A stretch of DNA of 64,000 bases from a virus. The translations under genes were made by a program, and so were the position numbers. The number at the start of each line of letters is the position of its first letter. The first letter of the stretch is position 1. The notes beneath the pieces were generated by a model. It ran no database searches and was not told where the DNA came from. It saw only the letters and a program-made list of their open reading frames with translations. The stretch is taken from IMG/VR virus record IMGVR_UViG_3300026290_000001. The stretch is one strand, 5' to 3'. Positions 13,780 to 52,052 of the stretch are shown here, one piece after another.

Positions 13780-14361
13780 CTACTTTAAAACCATACTTAT
13801 CACTGCACCAAATCCCATAGACATTGCAATTATAAATAAATTCTTTAAAATATCTGATAATTTTATTTTATTATCACCACTTACTTCATCAATCTTCTTG
13901 CTTAATTTCTCCACACTAACTTCTGTACTGTTCATTCTATTGCTTAGTACGTCTAATGAATTACTGATCTTCGCTTGATTTTCACTAATTTCAGCAATCA
14001 ATTTATCTCTTTTAATTCCGTCTTCTCTCTGTAATTTTGTGAGCAATTGGAGTTCGGACAAAACACTTGTAATATCATATATTTTGTTTGTTTGGCTTTC
14101 CAAATCATCTATACGGTGATTTGCCACCTTTATTTTTTCATCAACATTCTTAAATACTTCGGCACAAATTTTTGGTTGTTCACATTCTTGATTTATGACC
14201 AATTCACAACACCATCCAATCTTTGTATTCATTCCTCCTTTGCGGTATAATGGGTACAAGGTAATTAATTTGACCGCAAAATTAATTACCATAACGAATA
14301 AGGCAGGATACCTATTTTTATCCTGCCTTATTTTTATTTTATTAAATTTAAAAAATCTCAA
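13780..14361 (-). CDS. coiled-coil protein with C-terminal membrane anchor
   Basis: Heptad-like central region, hydrophobic C-terminus IIAMSMGFGAVISMVL. Confidence 0.3.
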   Translation of the reverse strand: MRFFKFNKIKIRQDKNRYPALFVMVINFAVKLITLYPLYRKGGMNTKIGWCCELVINQECEQPKICAEVFKNVDEKIKVANHRIDDLESQTNKIYDITSVLSELQLLTKLQREDGIKRDKLIAEISENQAKISNSLDVLSNRMNSTEVSVEKLSKKIDEVSGDNKIKLSDILKNLFIIAMSMGFGAVISMVLK

Positions 14362-36000: not shown

Positions 36001-36075
36001 TTTTACTTTATTTAGTTCTGATTCTGATGCTCTATCTAATAACGTTTTTATTCGGATTACAATATCATCTGCCAC
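30031..36075 (-). CDS. tail tape measure protein
   Basis: 2014 aa, extensive coiled-coil, central hydrophobic block, position between tail genes and baseplate; C-terminus carries a copper-amine-oxidase-N-terminal-like segment (YLSIREVAEALGHQVEWDEKKRQIRI). Confidence 0.8.
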   Translation of the reverse strand: MADDIVIRIKTLLDRASESELNKVKKDIEQRVNPKIKIDVDSKGLDKYKEKYVQIENAEAKITERTKEWTKANGESVKQIEHLKAGTDEVYKKVTETTINYKKQRTELEKLNKEQSKYWSQRVKETVGDMTKKPDELVKMADYYDNLEKTNLETIKNTQNKNFNEAKQHLTQLNKLRQDYHSLGNKDTEQAKELTKQITYHQGQYNNIIRRKIDIGEKTKIEGIEAEKLIQLEKIREQTLRNVGTIKAKNIDKDIIQQQKLTSEIHKQSLAQQDLLNRIRGMRGVDGKFIVGDNLSALNTLESQIRGFDPTNKNFSKNMAEANSKLREISTTTSIYKKEIQDANKYTGLFGQSLLEAGKKFASWLLIGDVIIKTITAVKNGIQSIIDIDTALTNLNKVTDETRETLNKFSLEANAIGRNLAKTSVEVINSTTEFARLGYSLEQSAQLAKQALLYSNVGDIGVEEASLAIISAVKGFGVAVDEEGRNIQKIVDIYNEVGNNFAISSAGIGEAMRRSAASLYSAGNTMEEAVALITAANAVVQDPATVGTALKTISMRLRGVSEDGEDVLEYLPKLEESFKNIGIQIRKDENTFKSTYDIMLELALVWEKLTDVQRANMSELVAGKRQGNIVMAMMTNYKDMQDSLTTALNSTNSALIENEKYMESIEAKSAQFKNTVMGKWQEALNSDVIKGFVIAMTTLVEVLGNAEVVVALLTTAFLIWKGTAITSSIKAMIAFITTTNAANISLLALLTTTQGLTAAMNFLKATMATNPLGLLAVVATTAMVAIYGLTNATKKHREEQQKQIETSQNQIQNLKQQKEGLKELTSEYETLKDKEKNLTATTEEKKRLLEIQKELVDKYGVSATGINLEGEAYSDSIEVIKLRILALDEELKKEQELLEFKVKASDKQTNKEIKKAINLRDTAEKRIEEYQLMIDNNKGTEWYNLRKLEDWKDIYQRQQEEIYNLSKNKQKYLEYEAQETIKTLESNGKEMSDSAKLVVSEFAKSLALQPEDIETQQQALSDFATKVANSDLDSLIEQYNKLTSAINSGDDSKKNRDGLSKTSKEITNLINTLTKGNPDLKEFAINFASLYPSTIDSKNAINTLNQYEKALSDFQTTYKDNVSKIKDLKGFLDELSDKGLTQSSIEKIISDYQDYIPLLEDESKLRQQLVKDTEDYQNAIYDAFIKTKEQDINFYNSVKNNHAELFNHLSKLYGNNVTQWANLAQAREAIELQLISKLGSEWAKYFDAFNAGTLLVNPSSMGDFRRIESGSALAVDSKTNQMLKDYAEFQKATRDMASKFKNLNVSSSLDRYGSSSKSSKSFTKTFEVWKEALEAINREIETFKDQLDDVTSFEQKTEIYDQMILLLQKKQNLLLDINNTFDSSLKQAEQNLRSYIGKGLSESDFNKIMSGSTDTIEVDIKNEKIAKAIEDFKKLKDSAEGLKKEIQGIDDEIRDLSFAEFKINLSIEDIKLSDLTQEKENLRNEMSLLEKGSAEYIALLERENQINIESVNILRNKIALVQQELASDRYNADQKQELINTLKQLKQEYINLQFSIKQQLASIADEIISIYKNIYEKQKQVALDAIDEQMKAEEKRHKQATDNLDDELKQFEDYINARIKALDREENEHDYNRELEKKQKAILETQKNIDVLSLDDSFEAKAKKAELIKQLAEQEDEINEYQHDHSIDLRKENLKDQLDAYKKDIDAKKKAEDTKLNLEKDRLDRIKRETEKHYDDLINDEQKFAQIRSDIINGNIDKVKSAFAEFKTFVNGNLEFIGNSISANLITKMEQALALLESANSANMSIPSLESTNPSSNTSGRQPMAVLDSGSFELVNNRAIMQSRLLASLLGASADWEGYGQNQTIIIGGKRFKPAKNVDGTTYLSIREVAEALGHQVEWDEKKRQIRIYHEGGIVGDKSFGFVDKFNKFFNTSANEHIIKALTNEILIPPKNIERYLIPNMQKLIANATPQLQFAGGGNVTYNMNVHIDKVENTEKGVDGFFKRINNGMSKLGK

Positions 36076-36189
36076 ATATATCCACTCCTTTCTTTACAAA
36101 TTTAAAAATAGGCAACAAAAAAGAAGTGGATATAATAATCTCACTTCTAAAAATTCAAACTATTAAAATTATTAAATTTTAAATTATAT

Positions 36190-39174: not shown

Positions 39175-40137
39175 TTAAAACACCACATAACTCACACCAC
39201 TACCAACAATTGCATCTTCACTACCACCAGCAAACGGTACTGGTTCACTTAAAATATCTAATGGGAAACCTGCTTGATAAGTACCAACCACAAATAATGC
39301 TGCTAATTCAGGGGTATTATTAATTATACTTTCTACATTACCTGGCATTATCTGGTCTGGATCGCCATCAACATTAGTAGGAGAAGTAATTGTTAATAAA
39401 TTATTAGCAAAACCAACAGTCCCTTGTTGACTTATTCCCGTACCAGCAACTAATATCACCGAATAATCATTTCCACTTACACCTGCTGTTTTACAATTAA
39501 TTACCATAGAACCACCTGTTGAACCTGTTACAGTTACACTTGCTGGAATGGCAAGTTGAGTATCAGCAAATCCTATAGTATCACCAATGGAAGATGTTAT
39601 TGTTCTTATATATTCAGTGTTATCTACACTGAATTTTATTGTTTTTGTGTTAAGCGAATCTAATTCAAAATTTTTAGTTGAATCTATTAATGTTGAAGTT
39701 GTTCCTATAGAAGTAGATGTACCATGAAGAAGTGCAGTTTGAATGGGAGTAGTTATGGTTGCGTTTAGATTAGTAGGGATATTGGTTATTAAACTTGCTC
39801 CTACATCAACTACACGACCTGTAATTTTTAATGTTCCTCCACTAACGGCAGATACTCGACATCTTACTCCTGCAAAATGTGCTAAATCTATGACGAAAAC
39901 CTGATTGGCATTACCTGTGACAGATGTAGCAATTGTTAATTCTGGTAATTTAACAGCAGGAATAGGAAACCAATTAGGTGTAGATGAACCATCACAACCT
40001 TCAAAATGTACAGTATAATTAGCCGAACTAATAATATAAACCGCCATTTGATTGTTTCTACCTGTTTTAAAAGTTACTCCATTACCTGTAGTTGTTACAT
40101 TATCTTGGAAAATCCAAGAGTTTGTTTGTACGTTCAT
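39175..40137 (-). CDS. putative major tail/structural protein
   Basis: Preceded by a terminator hairpin and a long CA-rich leader, suggesting high expression; Thr/Ser/Gly-rich. Confidence 0.35.
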   Translation of the reverse strand: MNVQTNSWIFQDNVTTTGNGVTFKTGRNNQMAVYIISSANYTVHFEGCDGSSTPNWFPIPAVKLPELTIATSVTGNANQVFVIDLAHFAGVRCRVSAVSGGTLKITGRVVDVGASLITNIPTNLNATITTPIQTALLHGTSTSIGTTSTLIDSTKNFELDSLNTKTIKFSVDNTEYIRTITSSIGDTIGFADTQLAIPASVTVTGSTGGSMVINCKTAGVSGNDYSVILVAGTGISQQGTVGFANNLLTITSPTNVDGDPDQIMPGNVESIINNTPELAALFVVGTYQAGFPLDILSEPVPFAGGSEDAIVGSGVSYVVF

Positions 40138-40291
40138 TTTATTTGCCTCCTTTTGATTTATGGATTTATGTTGTTTTGAGTGGTTGGTTGATTGATTGGT
40201 TAGTTAGTTGGTTGATTTGATTGGTTGAATGATAGTTGATTTGATTTGATTTGATTGTTATTTGAGTGATAGTTGAAAGGTTAATAAAATA

Positions 40292-40683: not shown

Positions 40684-41439
40684 TTAAACTTCTACATAAT
40701 GCATCATATCACCAGTTGAATCAGCGAGAATATCCCATTCAATCGATAATCTTGCTACGTTATCTGCGTCCATAGTAAGAGATACATTAGATTTTGGCTT
40801 AACATTTAATAATTGATACTGTACAAATGTATCAACCTGATTTGTTCCACGAACAGCACTATCAGCATAAATAGTATAACCACCAGGGAAACTTACATTA
40901 TCAACGGTAAATGTATTATGAGTTCCTTCTAACATATAATAACATACTACTTTTCCTGCGGTTGAAAATGTAGTCGGATTAAAAGTTAAGGCTTTATCTG
41001 TTATAGAATACTTATCTTCAGCACTTGCTGGAGTTCCTGCTGTTTGTTCAGCGTCATGGGTAATACCATCACTATTTAATTTAAAAATAACTAGACTACC
41101 AGCTTTGGGAAGTTCAGTTAATGATGCACCTCCACCACCGGCTTGAACATTTAAAACTTCACGTTTTGCTACAGGCATAGTTTTATTAGACATAGTTGTT
41201 CCGAAGAGCAAAGATAACCATTTAAGTTCAAAAACTTCCATCTCTGTCTTAAATGTACCCTCTCTCTGTTTATCCCATCTAATAGCTTTTGTAGTCTTAT
41301 TGTAAGCATAAACGGAATCAGCAGTAAAATCTATTGAACTTGTTTTGGCGTAATCAGCATAAAGAACTGGTTTTAATCCACCACCAGCAACTTGTTCATA
41401 TACATGAAGATTGGCCGCATCTTTAATACCATATAGCAT
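40684..41439 (-). CDS. putative tail tube / major tail protein
   Basis: Size and position; followed by an imperfect hairpin. Confidence 0.3.
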   Translation of the reverse strand: MLYGIKDAANLHVYEQVAGGGLKPVLYADYAKTSSIDFTADSVYAYNKTTKAIRWDKQREGTFKTEMEVFELKWLSLLFGTTMSNKTMPVAKREVLNVQAGGGGASLTELPKAGSLVIFKLNSDGITHDAEQTAGTPASAEDKYSITDKALTFNPTTFSTAGKVVCYYMLEGTHNTFTVDNVSFPGGYTIYADSAVRGTNQVDTFVQYQLLNVKPKSNVSLTMDADNVARLSIEWDILADSTGDMMHYVEV

Positions 41440-41509
41440 ATTATAAATTCCTCCTTTAATTATTTTTGTTTAATAAAAAGAGTAGATAATAGAAATCCAA
41501 TCCTTACAT

Positions 41510-42737: not shown

Positions 42738-43910
42738 CTAAAATAAATTCCTTATCATAATTCTAAATGCTGGTGTTACAAGACTTCCGCTTTCATTCCT
42801 TGCAAAAAGCTTTACATATCCAATAGTACTTCCAGCAGTTATCACACAACTATCAGTATCATAACTTGATATAGTTGCTAAATTTGTATTACTCACACCA
42901 TCATCACTTTTTAGATAAAATAGCATATCTCCAGGCACAATAATTCCATTATCACGAACAATACAATTATAATTAGATGATTTACCTTTTATAATTGAAT
43001 CACTTCCAATAATTTCTGCTGTAATATTGTGTTGGACTTCTTCAACCACGGTTACGGTAATACTATCACTTACCCCATTGGCACTTGCAGTTATTGTACA
43101 ACCACCTGTTTTTATAGCAGTTACCAAACCTGTACTGCTAACTGTGCAAATTCCTTCGTTTGAACTGATATAGGATAGGGCAGGGGAGGGAGATAATAAA
43201 AATTCATTATCATATACATTTACATTAAGTTGAAGGGTATCACCATCTTGAAGATTTATGGTTGATCCGTTAAGGATTTCTATAGTGTAAGTGTGAGTTA
43301 TAACTTCTTCAATGCAATATTCCATTTTTAATACTATTAGACCAGGCATGACTAAACGATTTATATCAATAACTCTATAATTATCATTTGATATAGAAAA
43401 TACTTCGCCACGTTCAATCAAAGAAGTTATATTATCATTTTTAATATAAACAATAATACTTGACTCAGGTATTGTTAAATATTTATTACTGTTATATCCC
43501 ATTGAATATAAACGAACATTACCATCTATTACAACGGGATAATTATATACAGTATTGTTTTTGTTTAAAGTTATATTTTGTGATGATAAATAAACTGTCC
43601 CAAATTCATAAACTGGATTAGTATCATCTATTCCAATGCACAACCATGTTTTATTATCAAAAACAATTTTGTCCCCAACACTGATACTATCACCAGGTTT
43701 CATTAATACTTTTTTAATAAAATAATCATCAGTATCAATTACTTGTATGTCAGTTGTAAATATTGAATCATTAAAATATGCTGAACGATAGGATGGATTA
43801 CTACTAAAATCTTTTGTTATAGAATTTTTCATATAATCAATTTGCCTATCGTTTATAGTATAACCATTGATTTTCAATTTTCGTTCATATAAATCCCAAT
43901 TTGTAGTCAA
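42738..43910 (-). CDS. structural protein with bacterial Ig-like (Big_2-type) domain
   Basis: C-terminal CTVSSTGLVTAIKTGGCTITASANGVSDSITVTV resembles Big_2 Ig-like domain. Confidence 0.4.
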   Translation of the reverse strand: MTTNWDLYERKLKINGYTINDRQIDYMKNSITKDFSSNPSYRSAYFNDSIFTTDIQVIDTDDYFIKKVLMKPGDSISVGDKIVFDNKTWLCIGIDDTNPVYEFGTVYLSSQNITLNKNNTVYNYPVVIDGNVRLYSMGYNSNKYLTIPESSIIVYIKNDNITSLIERGEVFSISNDNYRVIDINRLVMPGLIVLKMEYCIEEVITHTYTIEILNGSTINLQDGDTLQLNVNVYDNEFLLSPSPALSYISSNEGICTVSSTGLVTAIKTGGCTITASANGVSDSITVTVVEEVQHNITAEIIGSDSIIKGKSSNYNCIVRDNGIIVPGDMLFYLKSDDGVSNTNLATISSYDTDSCVITAGSTIGYVKLFARNESGSLVTPAFRIMIRNLF

Positions 43911-43934
43911 TAATCCACCCCCTTTTCATTTATT

Positions 43935-44468
43935 TTAATAAGCCTCAGGAATAAACTTTTTCCAAACAACTGTCGATTCAGAACCTTCTTTTTCACACCA
44001 GTAGTAATGTGGTGAAGCATAAACTACCACATTTCTCAACATACTTGGAGTACCTAAAGAACCACTGGATAGTTTTTCTACATCATCTCCCCAAGATGCA
44101 TTAGTGCAGTCTTCCGCAACTGCAACATCATTTCCGTCAGTACCTATAGTTTTATATTCAACCACAACAGTATCATCTTCTTTAGATGCTACAGCAGTTA
44201 CTAATACAGAATTAGCATTTATAGCTTTTGCCAATTCTTCAACTGCCTTATCTGCTGTTAAAGTTTCTCCTAAAACAACTGCAATGTTTCCTTCTTGAGC
44301 ATTCTCAGCAGCAACAACAAATTCATAAATTTCCGTTCCTCCGATAGTAACTGTTTCTGCTACTACGGGAATTCCTTTAAAAGTAAGAGTAGCAGTAGCC
44401 TTGTGTGGATTTGTTGGGTGTTCTTCGCTAAACCATTTCTCCTGCAATTGCAAAGTTCCATATGCCAA
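43935..44468 (-). CDS. hypothetical structural protein
   Basis: ORF with strong RBS, preceded by the repeated stem-loop element. Confidence 0.3.
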   Translation of the reverse strand: MAYGTLQLQEKWFSEEHPTNPHKATATLTFKGIPVVAETVTIGGTEIYEFVVAAENAQEGNIAVVLGETLTADKAVEELAKAINANSVLVTAVASKEDDTVVVEYKTIGTDGNDVAVAEDCTNASWGDDVEKLSSGSLGTPSMLRNVVVYASPHYYWCEKEGSESTVVWKKFIPEAY

Positions 44469-44537
44469 AATTAATTACCTCCTTTTCTTTATAAATAAAA
44501 AGGAGAGGGAAGGTTATTATCCTTCAAATTCTCCTAG

Positions 44538-44858
44538 CTAGTTATATTTATTTATCAATTTCTTAATAATATTAATACTCTTAAATACTTCTCGTTTTAT
44601 CTCACTATGAGAATATTGATTTTCAGACAACGCTTGCAATGTTGCTATTAAAGATAAAAAACTAGCATCTTTTTTTAACTTCAAAATCAAATCCTTACTG
44701 CCCGTCAACTCAAGAATAAGACTATCCAAATATGATTTTAAAGTTTCTGGTTCTGACTCACTTATTGGAAGGATTTTGTACACACGACCAATCAAGAAAT
44801 TCAGATAATTTAGAAAGAATTCATTGTCAATAATATTATCAATATGTACTTTAACCAT
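44538..44858 (-). CDS. hypothetical head-tail connector-region protein
   Basis: Small ORF downstream of capsid genes. Confidence 0.3.
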   Translation of the reverse strand: MVKVHIDNIIDNEFFLNYLNFLIGRVYKILPISESEPETLKSYLDSLILELTGSKDLILKLKKDASFLSLIATLQALSENQYSHSEIKREVFKSINIIKKLINKYN

Positions 44859-45313
44859 TATGAATCACCATAGGTATATAAAGTATAATCTACTATCATC
44901 CTTGAAATCTCTTTATCTAGTTCTTGTGCTAAAACCGTAAGTCTCAATAAATGTTCTGCCTGGGACGTTAATTTGAAATCCTTCGTTGTCATCCTTTGTT
45001 GCAATAATTCAAGATTATAAATCTTATCATTCAACCAATATTTTCTCATTATTGTAGCAAGAATTAATTTTTCTTCTTCTGTAAGAGTTTCATTAAATTT
45101 ACCTTCAATTGCTTCTCCAGTTTCACTTTCATCTTCACTAACTGGTTCAACCCTATCATTTAAATCTTTCTCACATGCTTTAAACCTTGTTATTGCCTTT
45201 AATAGTAATCCGTGTAAAATATCATCTCTTTCAGATTCCGTAAAATCTAAAAGAGAATCATCTTTTATATCACTAAGAAACATATTATATATTTCAGAAT
45301 ATAGTGAGGACAT
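44858..45313 (-). CDS. hypothetical head-tail connector-region protein
   Basis: Small ORF downstream of capsid genes. Confidence 0.3.
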   Translation of the reverse strand: MSSLYSEIYNMFLSDIKDDSLLDFTESERDDILHGLLLKAITRFKACEKDLNDRVEPVSEDESETGEAIEGKFNETLTEEEKLILATIMRKYWLNDKIYNLELLQQRMTTKDFKLTSQAEHLLRLTVLAQELDKEISRMIVDYTLYTYGDS

Positions 45314-45327
45314 TATCTTTGCCCCCT

Positions 45328-46080
45328 TTATTTAATGTTGATAAAATTGTCAACAGGTTTACCTTCAGGTTGTAAAAGAATATCCAATTCAATACCCATT
45401 GATTCTTCGATATAATTCTTTATTTTAATAGAATCCAATTCACCACTTTTAATCATTTTTGCCGCTTGTTCGACCACTGAATTCTTATATCCACTAGGTA
45501 ATTTATCAAACTTTTTCTTAAATGAATTAAAATCAAGTCTTAAAATATCAGATACATTATTCAATCCAAGAATTTCTTCATAATGTTTGAAAATGTTTGC
45601 ATATTTCAAAATTTCAATTTCATCATCTTCTATTACTCTAATCCAAGGCTCTCGTATAAATCTTGAGTCAGTATTTTTAAGATCAATAAATTCACCAAGT
45701 TCTATATTATTTGTATCTCCAGGGTTTTCCCAAACAATTTTATAACCAATTTTACGTTTGGATTTATAAATCAATCTACCACTGGATATATTTTTTAAGC
45801 AAATCATACGATTAAGATCTGGTTTCCAAGGTTCTTCTTTTGGTTGGATATTTTTTTTAGATGTTTGAGAAGGTTTAGATTCAAGTTGGGAAGTATCGGT
45901 ATTCAATTCTAAACTTTTTTTAATTCCTTCTACCTGTTCATCATCTAGTTTAGTCATGTGACTTTTTACTTCATATCCTAAATCTTGTGCTGTTTCAATA
46001 ATCTTTTTATTCTCAATATCTAGTTCCTTTGCCAATTCAAATACTTTCATATTAAAATTTACTCCTCTCATTCTTTGCAA
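45328..46080 (-). CDS. hypothetical protein with Rho-N/SAP-like N-terminal motif
   Basis: N-terminus MKVFELAKELDIENKKIIETAQDLG. Confidence 0.3.
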   Translation of the reverse strand: MQRMRGVNFNMKVFELAKELDIENKKIIETAQDLGYEVKSHMTKLDDEQVEGIKKSLELNTDTSQLESKPSQTSKKNIQPKEEPWKPDLNRMICLKNISSGRLIYKSKRKIGYKIVWENPGDTNNIELGEFIDLKNTDSRFIREPWIRVIEDDEIEILKYANIFKHYEEILGLNNVSDILRLDFNSFKKKFDKLPSGYKNSVVEQAAKMIKSGELDSIKIKNYIEESMGIELDILLQPEGKPVDNFINIK

Positions 46081-46086
46081 TTAAAA

Positions 46087-46105
46087 AGAGGGGATTAACC
46101 CCTCT
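46087..46105 (-). terminator. rho-independent terminator downstream of the capsid gene
   Basis: Perfect 7-bp GC-rich stem agagggg / cccctct, 5-nt loop, followed by a T-run on the - strand. Confidence 0.55.
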
Positions 46106-46146
46106 AAATAATTACTATAAAATTATATTGATAATTTATAATTTAA

Positions 46147-47145
46147 TTAGTCAGATATTTGATATCTGCCATAAAGGTCAGTAATTACAATACCAGTACC
46201 GTACCGAGTAGCTGCAAAGTAATCTTGGGTCAAATCTTGGTTGGCAAGTGCATCACCACTGATAATTCTCATTTCACCTTCGGTTACAAATTTTACAGGT
46301 TTTGCATCAACGGATACTATATAAAGATCACTTTCAGAAAGTTTGAAATTATATGTACCAACGGTGTGAACCTGTTTGATTCTCATCATAGGAGTACCAT
46401 TAAAGTTACCATAATAACCCATTTTGTACATATCATCTTTTGCAGCATCAGCTATAATAGCAGTAGTTACTTTCCGTAGTGCTTTTCTAGTTCCTGCAAT
46501 CATGGCAGATTTGCCAGTGGCGGCTTCAACGTGTTCAATTACATCAAGTAAATCTTCTTCATCAAAAGAACCATTGTCGGTGAATCCAGCAGGTAAACCA
46601 GAGAAAGCACCAGTGAAAGCGGTGTAAATATCATCGTTAATTTTCAGTTTGAAAGCCTTATCTAATGCTTCAAGCATTTCGTTAAAGTCTACACGTCCGG
46701 CGAGTAAACGAGAAAGATGTTCGTATATTTTGATGCCTTTCCAAGAGGTGGTGATAGAAACATTAGTTCCAACATCTAAACGCTGTCTACGTAGAGATTG
46801 AGTTCCATCGGCAATTTCTGAAATTACCAACATGGTGCGGTCTGGCGCATAGAAACTATTCTGATCACCAAGGGCAAGGTTCTTATATTCCACAAAATTT
46901 TCAAAGAAATTATCATCAGGAAGTCCTTCAAGGACAGTGTTTTGAAGAATCTCTTCTAATATTTCAAACATTGCTACGCCATTTCTACGGAATGATTTAT
47001 AATCCAATTTGGTAGAACCACCATTGAGTTCTATAAAATGTTGGCGCAATGCCTCTGTTGCATCGGATTTACTAAATTTATCATGTGAAAATTTATTTTT
47101 ATAAATATCTTTCGCTAATTTTACCAAAGTTTTATTATCTTCCAT
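46147..47145 (-). CDS. major capsid protein (putative)
   Basis: 332 aa, position after portal/scaffold region, followed by a strong terminator. Confidence 0.5.
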   Translation of the reverse strand: MEDNKTLVKLAKDIYKNKFSHDKFSKSDATEALRQHFIELNGGSTKLDYKSFRRNGVAMFEILEEILQNTVLEGLPDDNFFENFVEYKNLALGDQNSFYAPDRTMLVISEIADGTQSLRRQRLDVGTNVSITTSWKGIKIYEHLSRLLAGRVDFNEMLEALDKAFKLKINDDIYTAFTGAFSGLPAGFTDNGSFDEEDLLDVIEHVEAATGKSAMIAGTRKALRKVTTAIIADAAKDDMYKMGYYGNFNGTPMMRIKQVHTVGTYNFKLSESDLYIVSVDAKPVKFVTEGEMRIISGDALANQDLTQDYFAATRYGTGIVITDLYGRYQISD

Positions 47146-47182
47146 TTAATTTATTCCTCCTTTATTTATATTAATAGATTAA

Positions 47183-47713
47183 TTATCTAACACTAATCAT
47201 CTCTACCACATTAAGATACTTCGAACCATTGTAGATTTCTCTTGCAATGATTTTTCCATAGAAAACTTCACTCTTAGCAATGTTGGCTACTTCTGCCCAC
47301 TTAACACCTGTGGCGTCAGGAGCAACATAGGAATTAACTGCGGGGATGCCACTACCACTGCTAATCGGAGTAATGCAATCATCGCTGATACTAAAAGTGT
47401 CACCAACTTCAAGAGGTATTAGAGTAATATTCGCACCTGCGGCATTTTGAAACTTGTCTAATGCCTGACCAGATTTCGTTGATTCATCATAGATGATTTC
47501 TGGACTGGCTACAAGGTAACAATTAGGAGTAGTTTCACCCCCAGGTGCCACACACTTCCAGAGTTCTCTTTCTCCCGTAATTAGGGAATGCAATTTTACG
47601 ATACATCCATTGTCAATAGCAGTAGGATCAGCACCTACATAGTACCGTCCACTCTTGATATTACCTGCTTTAGTAGCCTTGATTGCGTCTGTTCTTACGA
47701 TTCCGTATGCCAT
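47183..47713 (-). CDS. hypothetical head protein (scaffold or decoration candidate)
   Basis: Immediately upstream of the putative capsid gene. Confidence 0.3.
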   Translation of the reverse strand: MAYGIVRTDAIKATKAGNIKSGRYYVGADPTAIDNGCIVKLHSLITGERELWKCVAPGGETTPNCYLVASPEIIYDESTKSGQALDKFQNAAGANITLIPLEVGDTFSISDDCITPISSGSGIPAVNSYVAPDATGVKWAEVANIAKSEVFYGKIIAREIYNGSKYLNVVEMISVR

Positions 47714-47729
47714 ATTATAAATTCCTCCT

Positions 47730-48710
47730 TTAAATTTTTAGTTCATTTTTTAAAATTTCCTCAATATTATCAAATTCCCAATAGGGAATACGAAGCAAAA
47801 TTATATTATGCTTTTTACAATATTCATTTTTTAGTTCATCATGAATTTGTAAAGTTTCAAACTCCTTCTTGGTCATCATACCTTTAACCCATTCATAATG
47901 TTGTTTCCCGTCATATTCAATCAACATTCTTAATTGGGTTTTTTCTTTGTCCCAAAATACAGGAACATCAAATTTAAGTAAACCTCCTCCAACGCCCTTT
48001 AAATCATCAAAAGTATATTGGGTGTGATGTGGAATATCATATTTTGTAAGTAAAATATCTAATTGTTTCTCTCCTTTAGATTCTGCACACTGGGAACAAC
48101 CTCTATTATTGCAACTTCTACTGAATATTTTTGCTTTCCATTCATACCCACATTCTAAACATTTCCACCAAGCGTACTTATTACAACCATAAGTTATATC
48201 ATAGGGAGTTAAATCGCCATTTTTGGTAGGATGCCACTCTAAGGTTAGGTCTGGTCTTTTAGTAGCGAGACAGTTTGATAATGTTACTTGCGCCCCTACG
48301 CAAACACCACATCCATTACCACTATAAATACCACTCCAATCAGCTAGAAAAATTTCTCCACAATCTTCTTTTAAACATCTCCATTGCATTTTAGTTTTTG
48401 CATTGCTATAATTTGTACTTATTAACTCAAAAGGTTTATTATTTAATACACACCAATTTTTCATATTTTGAATTGTGTATGGATTAGAAACATCAAATTT
48501 CATTGGATTGCTTCTTAAAAATACCGATATACTTTGAAAATAATAATAACTATCCATATCTTTAAATGTTAATTTTGAAAGCGCATTCTTATATTTCAAA
48601 TCAATCAAAATATAACCTTTTGCTAATAAAGTTTCCTTCACTAACTCATAAGTCCATTTAGTACCACTTGTATAACCCATAAATTCCTCCTCATCCTTGT
48701 TTACAAACAA
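47730..48710 (-). CDS. homing-endonuclease-like protein (zinc ribbon + PD-(D/E)xK/Vsr-like nuclease domain)
   Basis: Cys-rich region with EWHPTKNGDLTP zinc-ribbon motif, C-terminal ...LIEYDGKQHYEW...LLRIPYWE nuclease-like motif; intrusive position between capsid-assembly genes. Confidence 0.45.
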   Translation of the reverse strand: MFVNKDEEEFMGYTSGTKWTYELVKETLLAKGYILIDLKYKNALSKLTFKDMDSYYYFQSISVFLRSNPMKFDVSNPYTIQNMKNWCVLNNKPFELISTNYSNAKTKMQWRCLKEDCGEIFLADWSGIYSGNGCGVCVGAQVTLSNCLATKRPDLTLEWHPTKNGDLTPYDITYGCNKYAWWKCLECGYEWKAKIFSRSCNNRGCSQCAESKGEKQLDILLTKYDIPHHTQYTFDDLKGVGGGLLKFDVPVFWDKEKTQLRMLIEYDGKQHYEWVKGMMTKKEFETLQIHDELKNEYCKKHNIILLRIPYWEFDNIEEILKNELKI

Positions 48711-48827
48711 AAATAAGGAGAGGGAAGGTTTTTATCCTTCAAATCTCCTTTTATATAAAGAGGTAGTGGGAACATACCCCACCAGGAGTAACCTCCAAAT
48801 CTTAATTTCTTTTAATTTTTACTCTAC

Positions 48828-50294
48828 TTACTCTTTCTTCGAATACTTCTCTAAAAATTCATCAACTTTACTATGATTCTCTTCAATCTTCTTACTAAAA
48901 TCCAACTTCACTTTATCATTTTTATTTTTCTCTTTTGGTTTTGAAAAATTATTAGCACTCTGAATACCTAAAATCATATAACACTCTTTTTCCAAATCTT
49001 TAATTTTAAATTCAGATGCGGTTTCTTTCAATTTTTCATATTCAGGAATACCTTGAAGTTTATCATCGAATCGAGAGAAAAGATTTTGTTCGGATTCTTT
49101 GCGTTCTTCGGCAAATTTTATTGCCTGATATTCACGCAGAGCAATTACTTCTTCTTCTAGAGCAGAATAATTGTTTCTCATAATATCAATTGCTTCTTTT
49201 TCTTCTTTTGTAAGTCTATATTGGAAAAGTTCAATTCTTTCTCCCACAAAAGATACAACATCTTCTTCCTTTTTATATCCTTGACGATATATTTTTGTAC
49301 CTTCCCAATTTTCATATTCAAAACGATCATCATAAACCTGATCAATAAAATACCATTCATTATCTTCATCTTCCACGGGAGATAATAATTGATATAAAGC
49401 ATATCTTATCTCTGAATGCGAAAGTTCAAAAGATTTGATGAATTTTTCTGGTTCGTTATTATCATCGTTTTCTGAATCTAAATCATTGGTAGAATACAAT
49501 TCTTTTAATTTCTCCTCGATTTCCTCAAATTGCATCTCTTCTATATTAAAAGGTAATTCTTCTAAAGTTACCTTATATTCAGAAAGCAAAGCAATTATCT
49601 TTTCATCCACATTACTACCTCCTTTTTCAGTTTTATCTATATCATAATTAGAAAGAGTATTTTTTAACTCTTCCATCATTAAGATAAACTTTTGTTTTGT
49701 ATATTCTTCAAATGTTCCAGTAGTACCCAAAGCATTTTCCATACCAGTACCAGAATCTTTATTTAAAAATGTAATACCTTGATATCTATAATCAGTTATA
49801 TTAAACACCTTATCTTTTGCATTAAAAGTATATCCATCAATAATAATTTCCATAGATAATTTTATATTTTCATCTCTTTCAATTATATCTTCTGCATAAT
49901 TTGAGTACTCACGCCAAATATATGCATCCACAAAAACATAATTTTTGCCATTAAATTCTTTTATTTCATGATTACAATTTTCTGGCACAAGCCCAATTGG
50001 GGTTTCCTGAAATATTACTTTATATTCTCCTTCTTTTATCTTGTTGGGTTCTAAAGTCATATCATGGCCACCAAATTGAGGTTGTCCATCTTCATCAAAA
50101 ATTACATTTGCAAGAATTGGAATGTTTTTTATAGAATCTTTTGCATTTTCCATATCTGACACTATAAAATTACTCTTATTTGGGTTCACGCCATCATGAC
50201 ACACCCTTAATCGCATTTTTATAAATTTTTCAGAATCAAAAGATTCATCCACTTCATATGTGGTAGCAAGTGAAAGATGTTGCAATTCATTCAA
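48828..50294 (-). CDS. putative prohead protease/scaffold protein
   Basis: Position directly downstream of portal; acidic coiled-coil C-terminal half. Confidence 0.35.
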   Translation of the reverse strand: MNELQHLSLATTYEVDESFDSEKFIKMRLRVCHDGVNPNKSNFIVSDMENAKDSIKNIPILANVIFDEDGQPQFGGHDMTLEPNKIKEGEYKVIFQETPIGLVPENCNHEIKEFNGKNYVFVDAYIWREYSNYAEDIIERDENIKLSMEIIIDGYTFNAKDKVFNITDYRYQGITFLNKDSGTGMENALGTTGTFEEYTKQKFILMMEELKNTLSNYDIDKTEKGGSNVDEKIIALLSEYKVTLEELPFNIEEMQFEEIEEKLKELYSTNDLDSENDDNNEPEKFIKSFELSHSEIRYALYQLLSPVEDEDNEWYFIDQVYDDRFEYENWEGTKIYRQGYKKEEDVVSFVGERIELFQYRLTKEEKEAIDIMRNNYSALEEEVIALREYQAIKFAEERKESEQNLFSRFDDKLQGIPEYEKLKETASEFKIKDLEKECYMILGIQSANNFSKPKEKNKNDKVKLDFSKKIEENHSKVDEFLEKYSKKE

Positions 50295-50525: not shown

Positions 50526-52052
50526 TTATGTCCTATTATCAGGATTATTACTATCAACCACCTGACCTGCTTCTGTTGATCCTTCTATATTATCCCCCTT
50601 ACTTTTTGCCCCACCTTTATTAGAATCCTGATAAGCTGATTTAAGTGGCACAAATTTATCCGTAATTTTCATCACATCATTTTCAAGTAGTATCGAATTC
50701 ATCACATCAGAAGGAGATAGTCCCAAAGACGCACAATAATGACGTTTTACTGGAAGTCCAACTGTACTTGCTTCTCTATACATAGTTGCTAATTCATTTT
50801 TGTTATATCTTGTAATGTCCAAGAAAGTAACCTTGAAATTTATTTTTTTATTTTCATCTTTCAATCTGCGATTTATCCATCTCTCAAATTGCCGTAATAA
50901 TTGAAATACAGTTGCTTCATCACTCATAATGGCTTTGTTCAAGGCGGCACCAGATGCTTTATCACTATTAAAAATAAGTTTTGGTACACCAGCCGAATTA
51001 TAAATTGAATTCTCTGCCAAACTTACTCCATCTAACTCTCTTTCACTTTTATTAAGTTTAATGGATTCTACGGAATCAAAAGGGGATAATGCGATTCCGA
51101 TTTGATTAGGTAAATTACTACCCATAAGCTGATAGTACTCTTTGGCAATATCTAAACTTAAGGCGAAATTATTGGCAGAATCATCACTTTTGTTATATGG
51201 AATCTTAGCAATAAGTAGTAAATAGTTTTCTAATTCAGTTTTAGACATCTGAATATCCTTATACTCATAAAGTGAATAAATATCTTCAAATATTCCCGCC
51301 AAAGGTGGTATAGAATAATCGGTGTTAGATATTTTAATGCAAATAGTTTTACTAGAATCTAACTCTTGCCATTTCATATTCTTTCTATCTTTTTTATAAA
51401 TTTCATATTTTTCTCTAAATTCAGGAGCATACCTTTCTAAATCTTTTGGATAGGTGTCAAAATAATTGAACGAAAAACTGTAATTGTAGCACCCATCCTC
51501 AATACTACTTATAGCACAATAATCAGGGTTTAATAAATCAAAAAAGAAAGAATTTTTAGTTGAATAAATATACCCATACGCAACATCATCTATAAATGCC
51601 CTATATGTTAATTTTGAAAATTCATGTTTAATATTCATTGTTTCTAATAAATTTAATGTTGTTATATATTTTTTTTCTATTGTTGTAATTAAATCTTTAG
51701 TAATTTCATAATCAGTTTGGTTATATATATCTACCACATAATCAAAAGTTAACATTGTGGAAAAATAATCAATTAATCTTCTATAATGAGAAGAACTATC
51801 TAACAAAAACCTTGATAAATCTCTTAGTTTCTTTTCATATTTATGAGGATTTGCTAACCATGCAATTACATCATTTTTTGAAAATGTTTTATTAAAAGTA
51901 GAATTTGGTTGAGTATTATTTAAATCTTTTTTTATGTATTTTGCAAACTCAGCAAAATGAAGCATCATACGTTGAAACTGCATATCTTCTTTACTTAATG
52001 GTACATCGGTTTTAATAATTTCTTCTTTAATATCTGTTTTAGTATCTGTCAA
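50526..52052 (-). CDS. portal protein (putative)
   Basis: 508 aa directly downstream of large terminase. Confidence 0.55.
   Translation of the reverse strand: MTDTKTDIKEEIIKTDVPLSKEDMQFQRMMLHFAEFAKYIKKDLNNTQPNSTFNKTFSKNDVIAWLANPHKYEKKLRDLSRFLLDSSSHYRRLIDYFSTMLTFDYVVDIYNQTDYEITKDLITTIEKKYITTLNLLETMNIKHEFSKLTYRAFIDDVAYGYIYSTKNSFFFDLLNPDYCAISSIEDGCYNYSFSFNYFDTYPKDLERYAPEFREKYEIYKKDRKNMKWQELDSSKTICIKISNTDYSIPPLAGIFEDIYSLYEYKDIQMSKTELENYLLLIAKIPYNKSDDSANNFALSLDIAKEYYQLMGSNLPNQIGIALSPFDSVESIKLNKSERELDGVSLAENSIYNSAGVPKLIFNSDKASGAALNKAIMSDEATVFQLLRQFERWINRRLKDENKKINFKVTFLDITRYNKNELATMYREASTVGLPVKRHYCASLGLSPSDVMNSILLENDVMKITDKFVPLKSAYQDSNKGGAKSKGDNIEGSTEAGQVVDSNNPDNRT

Follow-up and report, generated by a model that had tools for sequence, protein, structure and literature searches.

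A repeated two-tier hairpin tied to a mobile homing endonuclease cassette in a phage head module: a candidate leaky terminator that may refold to occlude a Shine–Dalgarno sequence

Homing endonuclease genes of T4-type phages are controlled by hairpins that sequester the ribosome-binding site and by terminators, as described for I-TevI, I-TevII, I-TevIII, segB and mobE of Aeh1, with terminators found in mobE and segF (PMC2988022). These systems are the closest precedent for a repeated intergenic hairpin in the head module of a viral DNA stretch of 64,000 nucleotides (nt), IMG/VR record IMGVR_UViG_3300026290_000001, which as a whole is called the window here. The hairpin occurs twice, as copy A ahead of a gene for a 177-residue protein and as copy B ahead of a putative homing endonuclease gene. 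The reading that we favour, and regard as probable, is that A and B are one cis-acting RNA leader module tied to an endonuclease cassette, a leaky terminator able to refold into an occluder of the next Shine–Dalgarno (SD) sequence; this dual function is well motivated but unproven. By analogy, the A/B system would be a variant on the way in which hairpins are known to control homing endonucleases of T4, and as such a fairly ordinary piece of regulation. As in the T4-type cases, a free-standing endonuclease gene lies between essential phage genes and is accompanied by a terminator-like hairpin, its SD is predicted to be buried in a stable helix on read-through transcripts, and the likely purpose is to keep a potentially harmful nuclease low while expression of the neighbouring genes stays intact. 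Unlike the T4-type cases, the locus belongs to a low-GC Firmicute-type siphovirus, and no relationship between its endonuclease family and those of T4 is detectable. A single pyrimidine arm would pair with either of two SD-like partners, making the element bistable, and the invaded gene provides the 5′ partner in the form of its orphaned SD. A copy lacking the open reading frame (ORF) is retained before a structural gene, and a sigma-70-like scan found no internal promoter that would free the SD.

Both copies lie on the minus strand where the preliminary description of the locus had placed them, A at 44500-44535 and B at 48715-48749, and the repeat is real and non-random. Allowing up to three mismatches, a 30-nt degenerate core matched only 44500-44529 and 48715-48744 in the window and nothing in 100 dinucleotide shuffles; a second core pattern led to the same two sites. 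A covariance model trained on copy A and one relative, with natural sequences only and B left out, nevertheless found B at 52.4 bits (E ~3e-9), the runner-up in the window reaching 18 bits with filters off, and scored copy A itself at 75.9 bits. Pattern scans and model agree on two copies and no more in the window, and an exact-core scan of IMG/VR likewise returned two on the source contig. The repeat had been put at about 35 nt; it is longer than that, some 50 nt being alike from AGGAGA through the U-tract to ..TAAA(g/c)AA, and similarity ends at the ribosome-binding site.

Each copy folds into the two-tier hairpin with trailing T residues that had been proposed for it, the U-tract lying directly 3′ of the basal stem. 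Copy A (44501-44535, as delimited by the scans, the fold and the model score) runs from AGGAGA (44535-44530) through an AUUU bulge (44529-44526), GAAGG (44525-44521), the loop AUAAUAA (44520-44514), CCUUC (44513-44509) and a CC bulge (44508-44507) to the anti-SD arm UCUCCU (44506-44501), and continues into the U-tract region UUUUUAUUUAU (44491-44500). Copy B (48715-48750) is built in the same way from AAGGAGA (48750-48744), UUU (48743-48741), GAAGG (48740-48736), AUAAAAA (48735-48729), CCUUC (48728-48724), CC (48723-48722) and the anti-SD arm UCUCCUU (48721-48715). The letters 3′ of hairpin B read AUUUUUGUUUG, and its U-tract is UUAUUUUUGUUUG. Besides scans, fold and model, copy B is defined by covariation with one related locus, a homologue in another and a junction comparison. 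Stripped to its common parts, the module comprises an SD-like purine 5′ arm, the inner hairpin UUU-GAAGG-AUAAnAA-CCUUC-CC, a pyrimidine anti-SD 3′ arm UCUCCU(U) and a U-tract. Its predicted folding energy is −13.5 kcal/mol in A (z −2.5) and −14.2 kcal/mol in B (z −2.7). A tRNA-derived origin was considered and rejected: the core pattern matched tRNA T-arms (GAAGGTTCGAATCCTTCCCTCTCCACCA) in IMG/VR, but the resemblance is driven by the pattern, since the loop here is AUAAnAA and ARAGORN found in the window a single tRNA-Thr, unrelated to A and B.

The hairpin recurs at the same site, ahead of endonuclease homologues, in two related phages (L-numbers denote the loci or contigs of related phages that were compared with the window). 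In L067 the endonuclease is 50% identical at the amino acid level, and in L243 it is 37% identical over the N-terminal 77 residues left on the contig. L067 departs from B at 6 of 24 stem bases, yet these amount to three double compensatory changes and all 12 pairs are kept, an outcome that random substitution sets reproduce in 0.08% of trials. Almost no change is seen in the loop AUAAAAA or in the UUU and CC bulges, such that unpaired bases are more conserved than the stems, the one variation in the 5′ bulge being AUUU in A, L067 and L243 and one base fewer in B. The leader as a whole retains about 84% nucleotide identity, compared with 37–50% amino acid identity for the protein that it precedes. 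This pattern indicates that the hairpin structure is under selection.

Conservation of this kind would also be expected of a protein-binding RNA or DNA site, in which the inner module is an operator or a nut-like element bound by the endonuclease through its zinc ribbon, or by a phage termination or antitermination factor, and the outer helix does no more than present it. The near invariance of loop and bulges, the covariation of both stems and the greater conservation of leader than protein all fit such a site. Congruent with it, L048 holds the same inner module in a different outer stem, DUF4379 domains, of the type found in the endonuclease, occur in ribosome-associated proteins of the PDB, and autorepression by I-TevI offers a precedent (PMC2988022). 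The binding protein is nonetheless hypothetical, the independent sequences number three or four, and copy A retains the module without an adjacent endonuclease gene. As a replacement for the favoured reading we consider protein binding highly doubtful; it is compatible with that reading rather than exclusive of it.

The gene behind copy B is a putative free-standing homing endonuclease gene of 316 codons (47730..48680, minus strand). Its product matches PHROG 559 ('HNH endonuclease', 1e-39) and PHROG 9084 ('homing endonuclease'); in Pfam only the DUF4379 zinc ribbon is recognized, and PDB matches are weak. Homologues from cultured phages carry the annotation of homing or HNH endonuclease and reach at most 32% identity, and a metagenome scan with the protein found none closer than 58%. 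The preliminary description had each hairpin followed by a ribosome-binding site and a gene start, which holds for the 177-residue gene; for the endonuclease, the start given at 48710 is a TTG that falls within the U-tract of B, and the most likely start is the ATG at 48680, with GGAGG 5 nt upstream and homologues beginning MGYT.. or MAHV.. at the equivalent point. Homologues of the endonuclease occupy many intergenic sites in the structural modules of relatives, among them the gap between the portal gene and a gene for a 58-residue protein, the gap between the 106- or 151-residue gene and the 177-residue gene, where copy A lies in the window (the A site), and positions around the tail-tube gene.

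The endonuclease gene travels with its leader. A block of about 1.1 kilobases (kb) on the minus strand, 47688..48806, differs by 2 mismatches in 1119 nt from L236, a 149-kb contig (NZ_JAJFUC010000015.1) labelled Clostridium sp. MAG. Outside the block, the flanks are only about 80–88% identical overall, matching at some 27–48 positions per 50 nt, and the flanking proteins are 73–88% identical. The block contains a further hairpin (hairpin 1), copy B, the endonuclease gene, a restored translation-initiation region of the gene in scaffold position and the first 26 nt of that gene. The same site is empty in L126, L127, L019, L036, L041 and L024, where 17–60 nt separate the gene for a 488-residue protein from the scaffold gene; the capsid protein of L126 is 85% identical to that of the window. 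Near identity within diverged flanks, combined with emptiness of the site in other relatives, establishes the mobility of the cassette, and presence/absence polymorphism at one site together with near-identical copies in diverged backgrounds is the signature of a free-standing homing endonuclease cassette. A different state is seen in L018, whose 488-residue gene product is 97% identical: about 1035 nt are gone, and the last 21 endonuclease codons remain (IPYWDFDNIETILKNELKI and the stop), L018:7464-7545 corresponding to window 47730-47790. The C-terminal motif of this remnant is also present in endonuclease homologues at other sites. Because these codons are retained, L018 is a deletion derivative and not a naive site. 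As a separate observation, the portal and capsid of L236 are 85% and 88% identical to the window's, set beside an endonuclease cassette scored as identical; and the binning of this relative as Clostridium sp. MAG hints at a clostridial host for the phage.

These comparisons bear directly on the suggestion that the repeat is a recognition or insertion site, with A as the target of the endonuclease and B as an immune variant. Such a DNA-level homing site could draw on the adjacency of B to the endonuclease gene, on the A site being an insertion hot spot for related endonucleases (L126, L132, L136, L062/L063), and on the likeness of the initiation region of the 177-residue gene to that of the scaffold gene. 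Instead, B is itself part of the block that moves with the gene, the six empty scaffold junctions of endonuclease-free relatives have no hairpin, and relatives in which the A site is empty or holds other endonucleases lack it as well. Furthermore, compensatory changes in the stems point to selection on pairing and not on a duplex recognition sequence. A homing site is thus very improbable: the association with the endonuclease that had been proposed is real, but since B is part of the mobile block and missing from empty alleles, B is not what the endonuclease recognizes.

Comparison of empty and filled junctions reveals where the arms of hairpin B come from. In the empty L127 junction, ..AAAGGAGGAATTTATAATATG is followed by the scaffold gene; in the filled L243 junction, the end of the upstream gene being identical to that of L127, the sequence reads ..TAAGGAGAATTT|GAAGGATAACAACC, also written TAAGGAGAATTT|GAAGGATAACAACCTTCC. 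The empty scaffold junction has the sequence GGAGGAATTTATAATATGGCATACGG, also written ..AAAGGAGGAATTTATAATATGGCATACGG... From this comparison, what now forms the 5′ arm and bulge of the hairpin is the scaffold gene's orphaned SD with its spacer. The insertion point of the cassette, as read from these junctions, is the spacer between the SD and ATG of the scaffold gene, and the cassette begins at the inner hairpin, supplying the anti-SD arm, the U-tract, an SD of its own (GGAGGAATTTATG) and the ORF. At its right end the initiation region of the scaffold gene is recreated (GGAGGAAUUUAUAAUAUG, 47711..47728, minus strand), the same region being present in the empty L127. Within it, the 12-mer GGAGGAATTTAT at 47728-47717 repeats the initiation region of the endonuclease at 48690-48679, and the ORF is flanked by these direct repeats; recombination between them would excise it precisely.

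Hairpin 1, which the preliminary description had missed, lies just upstream of B (48759..48796, minus strand) and is also two-tiered, GGAGGU / UACUCCU / GGUGGGG-UAUGU-UCCCAC / ACCUCU. It is unrelated to A and B. Its 5′ arm GGAGGT is likewise an orphan SD, because the homology between L126 and L236 stops right after GGAGG. Its core matches over 31 nt, at 97% identity, the leader that precedes a different endonuclease homologue in L059/L061. In the window no ORF accompanies hairpin 1, which looks like a solo leader that an earlier invasion left behind. A derivation of the AT-rich left end of the cassette from the A site of L126 was tried and dropped, blastn-short having returned the same low-complexity words throughout the loci, none significant. 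Nearly identical initiation regions, TAAAGGAGGAATTTATAATATG with a (M)-x-Y-G start, are found at the scaffold gene (47700-47739) and at a 251-residue gene (41426-41465, start 41439), and that of the 177-residue gene (44466-44487) is similar; it is into this type of region, in its scaffold form, that the endonuclease cassette inserts.

A second fold, also overlooked earlier, is open to every version of the module: the 3′ arm and U-tract can pair instead with the SD region of the next gene. At B, this alternative helix has 16 base pairs (bp) and −21.7 kcal/mol (z −3.6), and spans 48678..48714, in which the U-tract (48714-48704) is followed by a small palindrome, the SD GAGGAGG (48692-48686) and the endonuclease ATG (48680-48678). 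In L067 it has about 20 bp (z −4.5) and in L243 15 bp. At A, the anti-SD arm and U-tract form its 5′ strand and pair over 10 bp (−9.8 kcal/mol) with a segment (44466..44487) holding the SD GGAGG (44482-44478) and TTG start (44468-44466) of the 177-residue gene. At equilibrium, the 3′ arm is predicted to pair with the SD region with P = 0.92–0.996, the value for A being 0.92. Among the 49 window genes with a recognizable SD, the predicted probability of the SD being unpaired is 0.002 for the endonuclease (rank 2) and 0.007 for the 177-residue gene (rank 4). The endonuclease SD is thus paired in a stable predicted helix that is kept in L067 and L243, as in an RBS-sequestering hairpin. Rank 1 belongs to a 2014-residue gene, probably for the tape measure protein, with a GTG start at 36075. 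Its minus-strand terminator hairpin (36085-36148), AGAAGUG...CACUUCU followed by U6, is unrelated in sequence, and its 3′ arm and U-tract pair over 18 bp with the SD; the same pairing in an unrelated hairpin means that the design recurs in the phage.

Another reading is that the element encodes a leader peptide whose translation would open the structure, as in attenuation of the erm or cat type. A frame of 12–13 codons (TTG AAG GAT AA. AAC CTT CCC TCT CCT ...TAA) does run through the hairpin, is open in both A and B (TTG at 44527 and 48742) and ends in a TAA beside the SD. Its only SD, however, would be the 5′ arm, which is 2–3 nt from the TTG, too close and itself paired; in L067 the frame lacks the equivalent stop and extends into the endonuclease gene in a different reading phase; and conservation of the peptide is a trivial outcome of nucleotide conservation. 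The spacing and pairing of the SD and the L067 frame led us to reject the leader peptide, which is barely credible.

At the level of sequence, the terminator or attenuator role that had been proposed for the repeat finds support in its hairpin and U-tract, its compensatory changes and relatives at terminator positions in L048 and L126. Like intrinsic terminators and attenuators of Firmicutes, A and B present a stable stem-loop on the transcribed strand with a U-rich tract immediately 3′, just past a stop codon. A plain hairpin with the 3′ half and U-tract of A (CCCTCTCCTTTTAATTTA) follows the capsid gene in L126, and L048 has, at the end of a gene block, a two-tier hairpin that shares the bulges, resembles A and B in its loop and scores 35 bits with the covariance model. 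L048 was at one point taken for a third independent leader; that was withdrawn, and it is counted only in support of terminator use, because it sits where the window has a plain terminator with the same outer stem (40322-40290). Unlike Firmicute terminators, A and B have a two-tier stem with a 3–5 × 2–3 internal loop whose unpaired bases are conserved, a conserved alternative pairing with the next SD and no room for a downstream promoter, from which it follows that a terminator here must be leaky.

Might A and B then be plain intrinsic terminators and nothing else, their similarity due to recent duplication or gene conversion and the SD complementarity a compositional by-product? Hairpin and U-tract would be accounted for, as would the related sequences at ordinary terminator positions, after the capsid in L126, in L048 and at 40322-40290 of the window. 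But composition does not readily explain why B, L067 and L243 all keep the occluding helix despite differing U-tracts and spacers (z −3.6 to −4.5 where scored), why both downstream genes rank among the four least accessible SDs of 49, or why loop and bulge bases, which a terminator does not need, are more conserved than stems. Plain termination is unlikely. Several observations weigh against the leaky terminator and SD occluder, of which the weakness of the helix at A and the marginal family-wide signal also speak for plain termination. The helix that would occlude the SD at A is weak, and its fold does not stand out from shuffles (z −1.0 and −0.2); a U-tract and an A-rich SD region are in any case complementary through their composition. 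When 43 leaders from the whole endonuclease family are compared with 400 control genes, SD occlusion is marginally greater in the leaders (medians 0.41 and 0.47, p = 0.04), an effect that limits the occlusion claim to B-type and a few other leaders. The 4 × 2 internal loop beside a basal stem of 6–7 bp is not a classic terminator shape, and of copy A a terminator consensus scan caught the inner stem only. No promoter-like site was found from either hairpin to the start codon that follows with a sigma-70-like pattern, which may not be the phage's late-promoter type, so that any termination ahead of the scaffold, capsid and tail genes must be partial. The covariation set consists of few independent sequences (B/A, L067, L243), and termination and translational repression by A and B are predictions only. 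For copy A in particular, the left part GGAGAATTT looks like an initiation region of scaffold type, unlike that of the 177-residue gene, and none of the relatives found has an endonuclease with a B-type leader at the A site.

On balance the leaky terminator and SD occluder is retained as the preferred account, and it would operate as follows. During transcription, the two arms would pair into a terminator-like hairpin and stop part of the transcription arriving from the upstream gene. In RNA that is read through, the anti-SD arm and U-tract would re-pair with the SD of the next gene and reduce its translation. Since the 5′ arm of B is the scaffold SD and the remainder is supplied by the cassette, hairpin B would silence the orphan SD, insulate the endonuclease gene and keep endonuclease translation low, while copy A may now be retained as an attenuator at the head–tail boundary, acting on the 177-residue gene. 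The testable picture is of a selfish endonuclease lodged harmlessly between the SD and start codon of an essential capsid-assembly gene, in which one pyrimidine arm would both hide the orphaned site and throttle the cassette's own expression, and the cassette would supply a new site for the gene that it displaced. Pieces of such cassettes persist after gene loss and may be reused by the phage.

Copy A begins 2 nt past the stop codon of the 106-residue gene and about 20 nt ahead of the SD of the 177-residue gene (43935..44468, minus strand), a core gene in relatives that lies between head-completion genes and a 390-residue major tail protein with an Ig domain. It is present in L006, an identical contig, in L014, an 87% relative with an identical copy, and in L018, with a 1-nt loop insertion. 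Compared with L014, copy A lies in an 88-nt island without mismatches, the flanks diverging by 6–18%. More distant relatives have 23–34 nt at the junction of the 106- and 177-residue genes and either no hairpin or a different one, and in L126, L132, L136 and L062/L063 the site holds endonuclease homologues; searches with the 177-residue protein and its profile yielded no further contigs carrying the A site. The closest match to copy A is the window's own B. Most likely, A is an ORF-less copy of the 5′ junction of the cassette, left behind or copied by cassette turnover and retained since. Recombination between repeats such as GGAGGAATTTAT would fuse a leader to the SD of the next gene, which is the layout of A; its scaffold-type left part suggests that A was copied as a whole hairpin rather than inserted independently. 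Given that no relative was found to combine a B-type leader and an endonuclease at the A site, we infer this origin only. Downstream, the major tail protein and a 158-residue gene product (window 42738-43910) are about 49% identical to those of L014, and their neighbours 81–96%, a drop that places a mosaic breakpoint just downstream of the 177-residue gene.

Other members of the endonuclease family have structured leaders of a different kind. Many homologues are preceded by a three-way junction of about 65 nt, in which a closing helix is followed by AUAG and a first hairpin, then by GAAAAG and a second hairpin whose loop is CUCC/UCCU, and finally by the U-tract and SD; examples are L126:7577-7645, L078, L076, L158/L084, L070, L087, L096, L098, L105, L063, L101 and L033. 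Folded as single sequences, 12 of 14 such leaders adopt this form individually; an RNAalifold consensus of the 14 from a MAFFT alignment gave no structure, because the alignment is poor. Matches to the Rfam family int-alpA (RF02996) at gathering score occur in two of these leaders, at L101:2906-2976 and at L033:4185-4252, so that int-alpA, classed as a small RNA by Rfam and without mention in the main text of Weinberg 2017, looks here like an endonuclease leader. No int-alpA match was found in window 43500-49500 even at E <= 10. Like the int-alpA and three-way-junction leaders, the module ahead of the endonuclease has a closing helix, a U-tract and an SD directly upstream of the gene; unlike those leaders, A and B have one inner hairpin instead of two and lack the UAG and GAAAAG junction motifs.

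These leaders point to a wider set of RNA structures, int-alpA-like RNAs included, on one endonuclease family. A decidedly unlikely generalization would be that cassettes of the family invade the SD–ATG spacers of highly expressed structural genes and carry sequence-specific riboregulators, composed of the inner hairpin, more conserved than the nuclease, and an anti-SD arm, which a protein of the phage or the cassette would read, that decayed ORFs leave working attenuators behind, such as copy A and hairpin 1, and that the int-alpA-like three-way junctions are a second class of the same device. If solo leaders do serve as attenuators, late operons of phages would regularly gain new regulatory hairpins from the turnover of selfish genes. 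For annotation, the warning is that short repeated hairpins between genes of structural modules can be footprints of endonuclease traffic.

The window has a G+C content of 28% and is identical to a 99.6-kb IMG/VR contig, IMGVR_UViG_3300009671_000358. A megablast search of 43900-49000 against GenBank phages returned no match and no close cultured relative, and the capsid protein is at most 45% identical to those of large siphoviruses of the Lactococcus 949 group, Bacillus and Brevibacillus. All genes around A and B are on the minus strand, which carries the late structural genes: portal (50526-52052), the 58-residue gene after it, the 488-residue gene (48828-50294), the 176-residue gene in scaffold position (47183-47713), the major capsid protein (46147-47145), genes for 250, 151 and 106 residues between the capsid and 177-residue genes, and the 390-residue major tail protein after the latter. 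Between the portal and 58-residue genes, where the window has 35 nt, L018:5480-5770 and L126:2455-2740 contain an extra ORF of about 95 codons (LSFYEEVLKNTRGN...). Farther along the minus strand, a gene starting at 40137 has upstream of it a leader of about 120 nt (40165-40285) that is free of G, rich in CA and made up in part of CAAAUCAA-like repeats; this leader is preceded by the plain terminator at 40322-40290. At 14291-14337, where gene orientation switches, a symmetric hairpin, AAGGCAGGAU...CCUGCCUU, with U and A tracts on both sides, looks like a bidirectional terminator.

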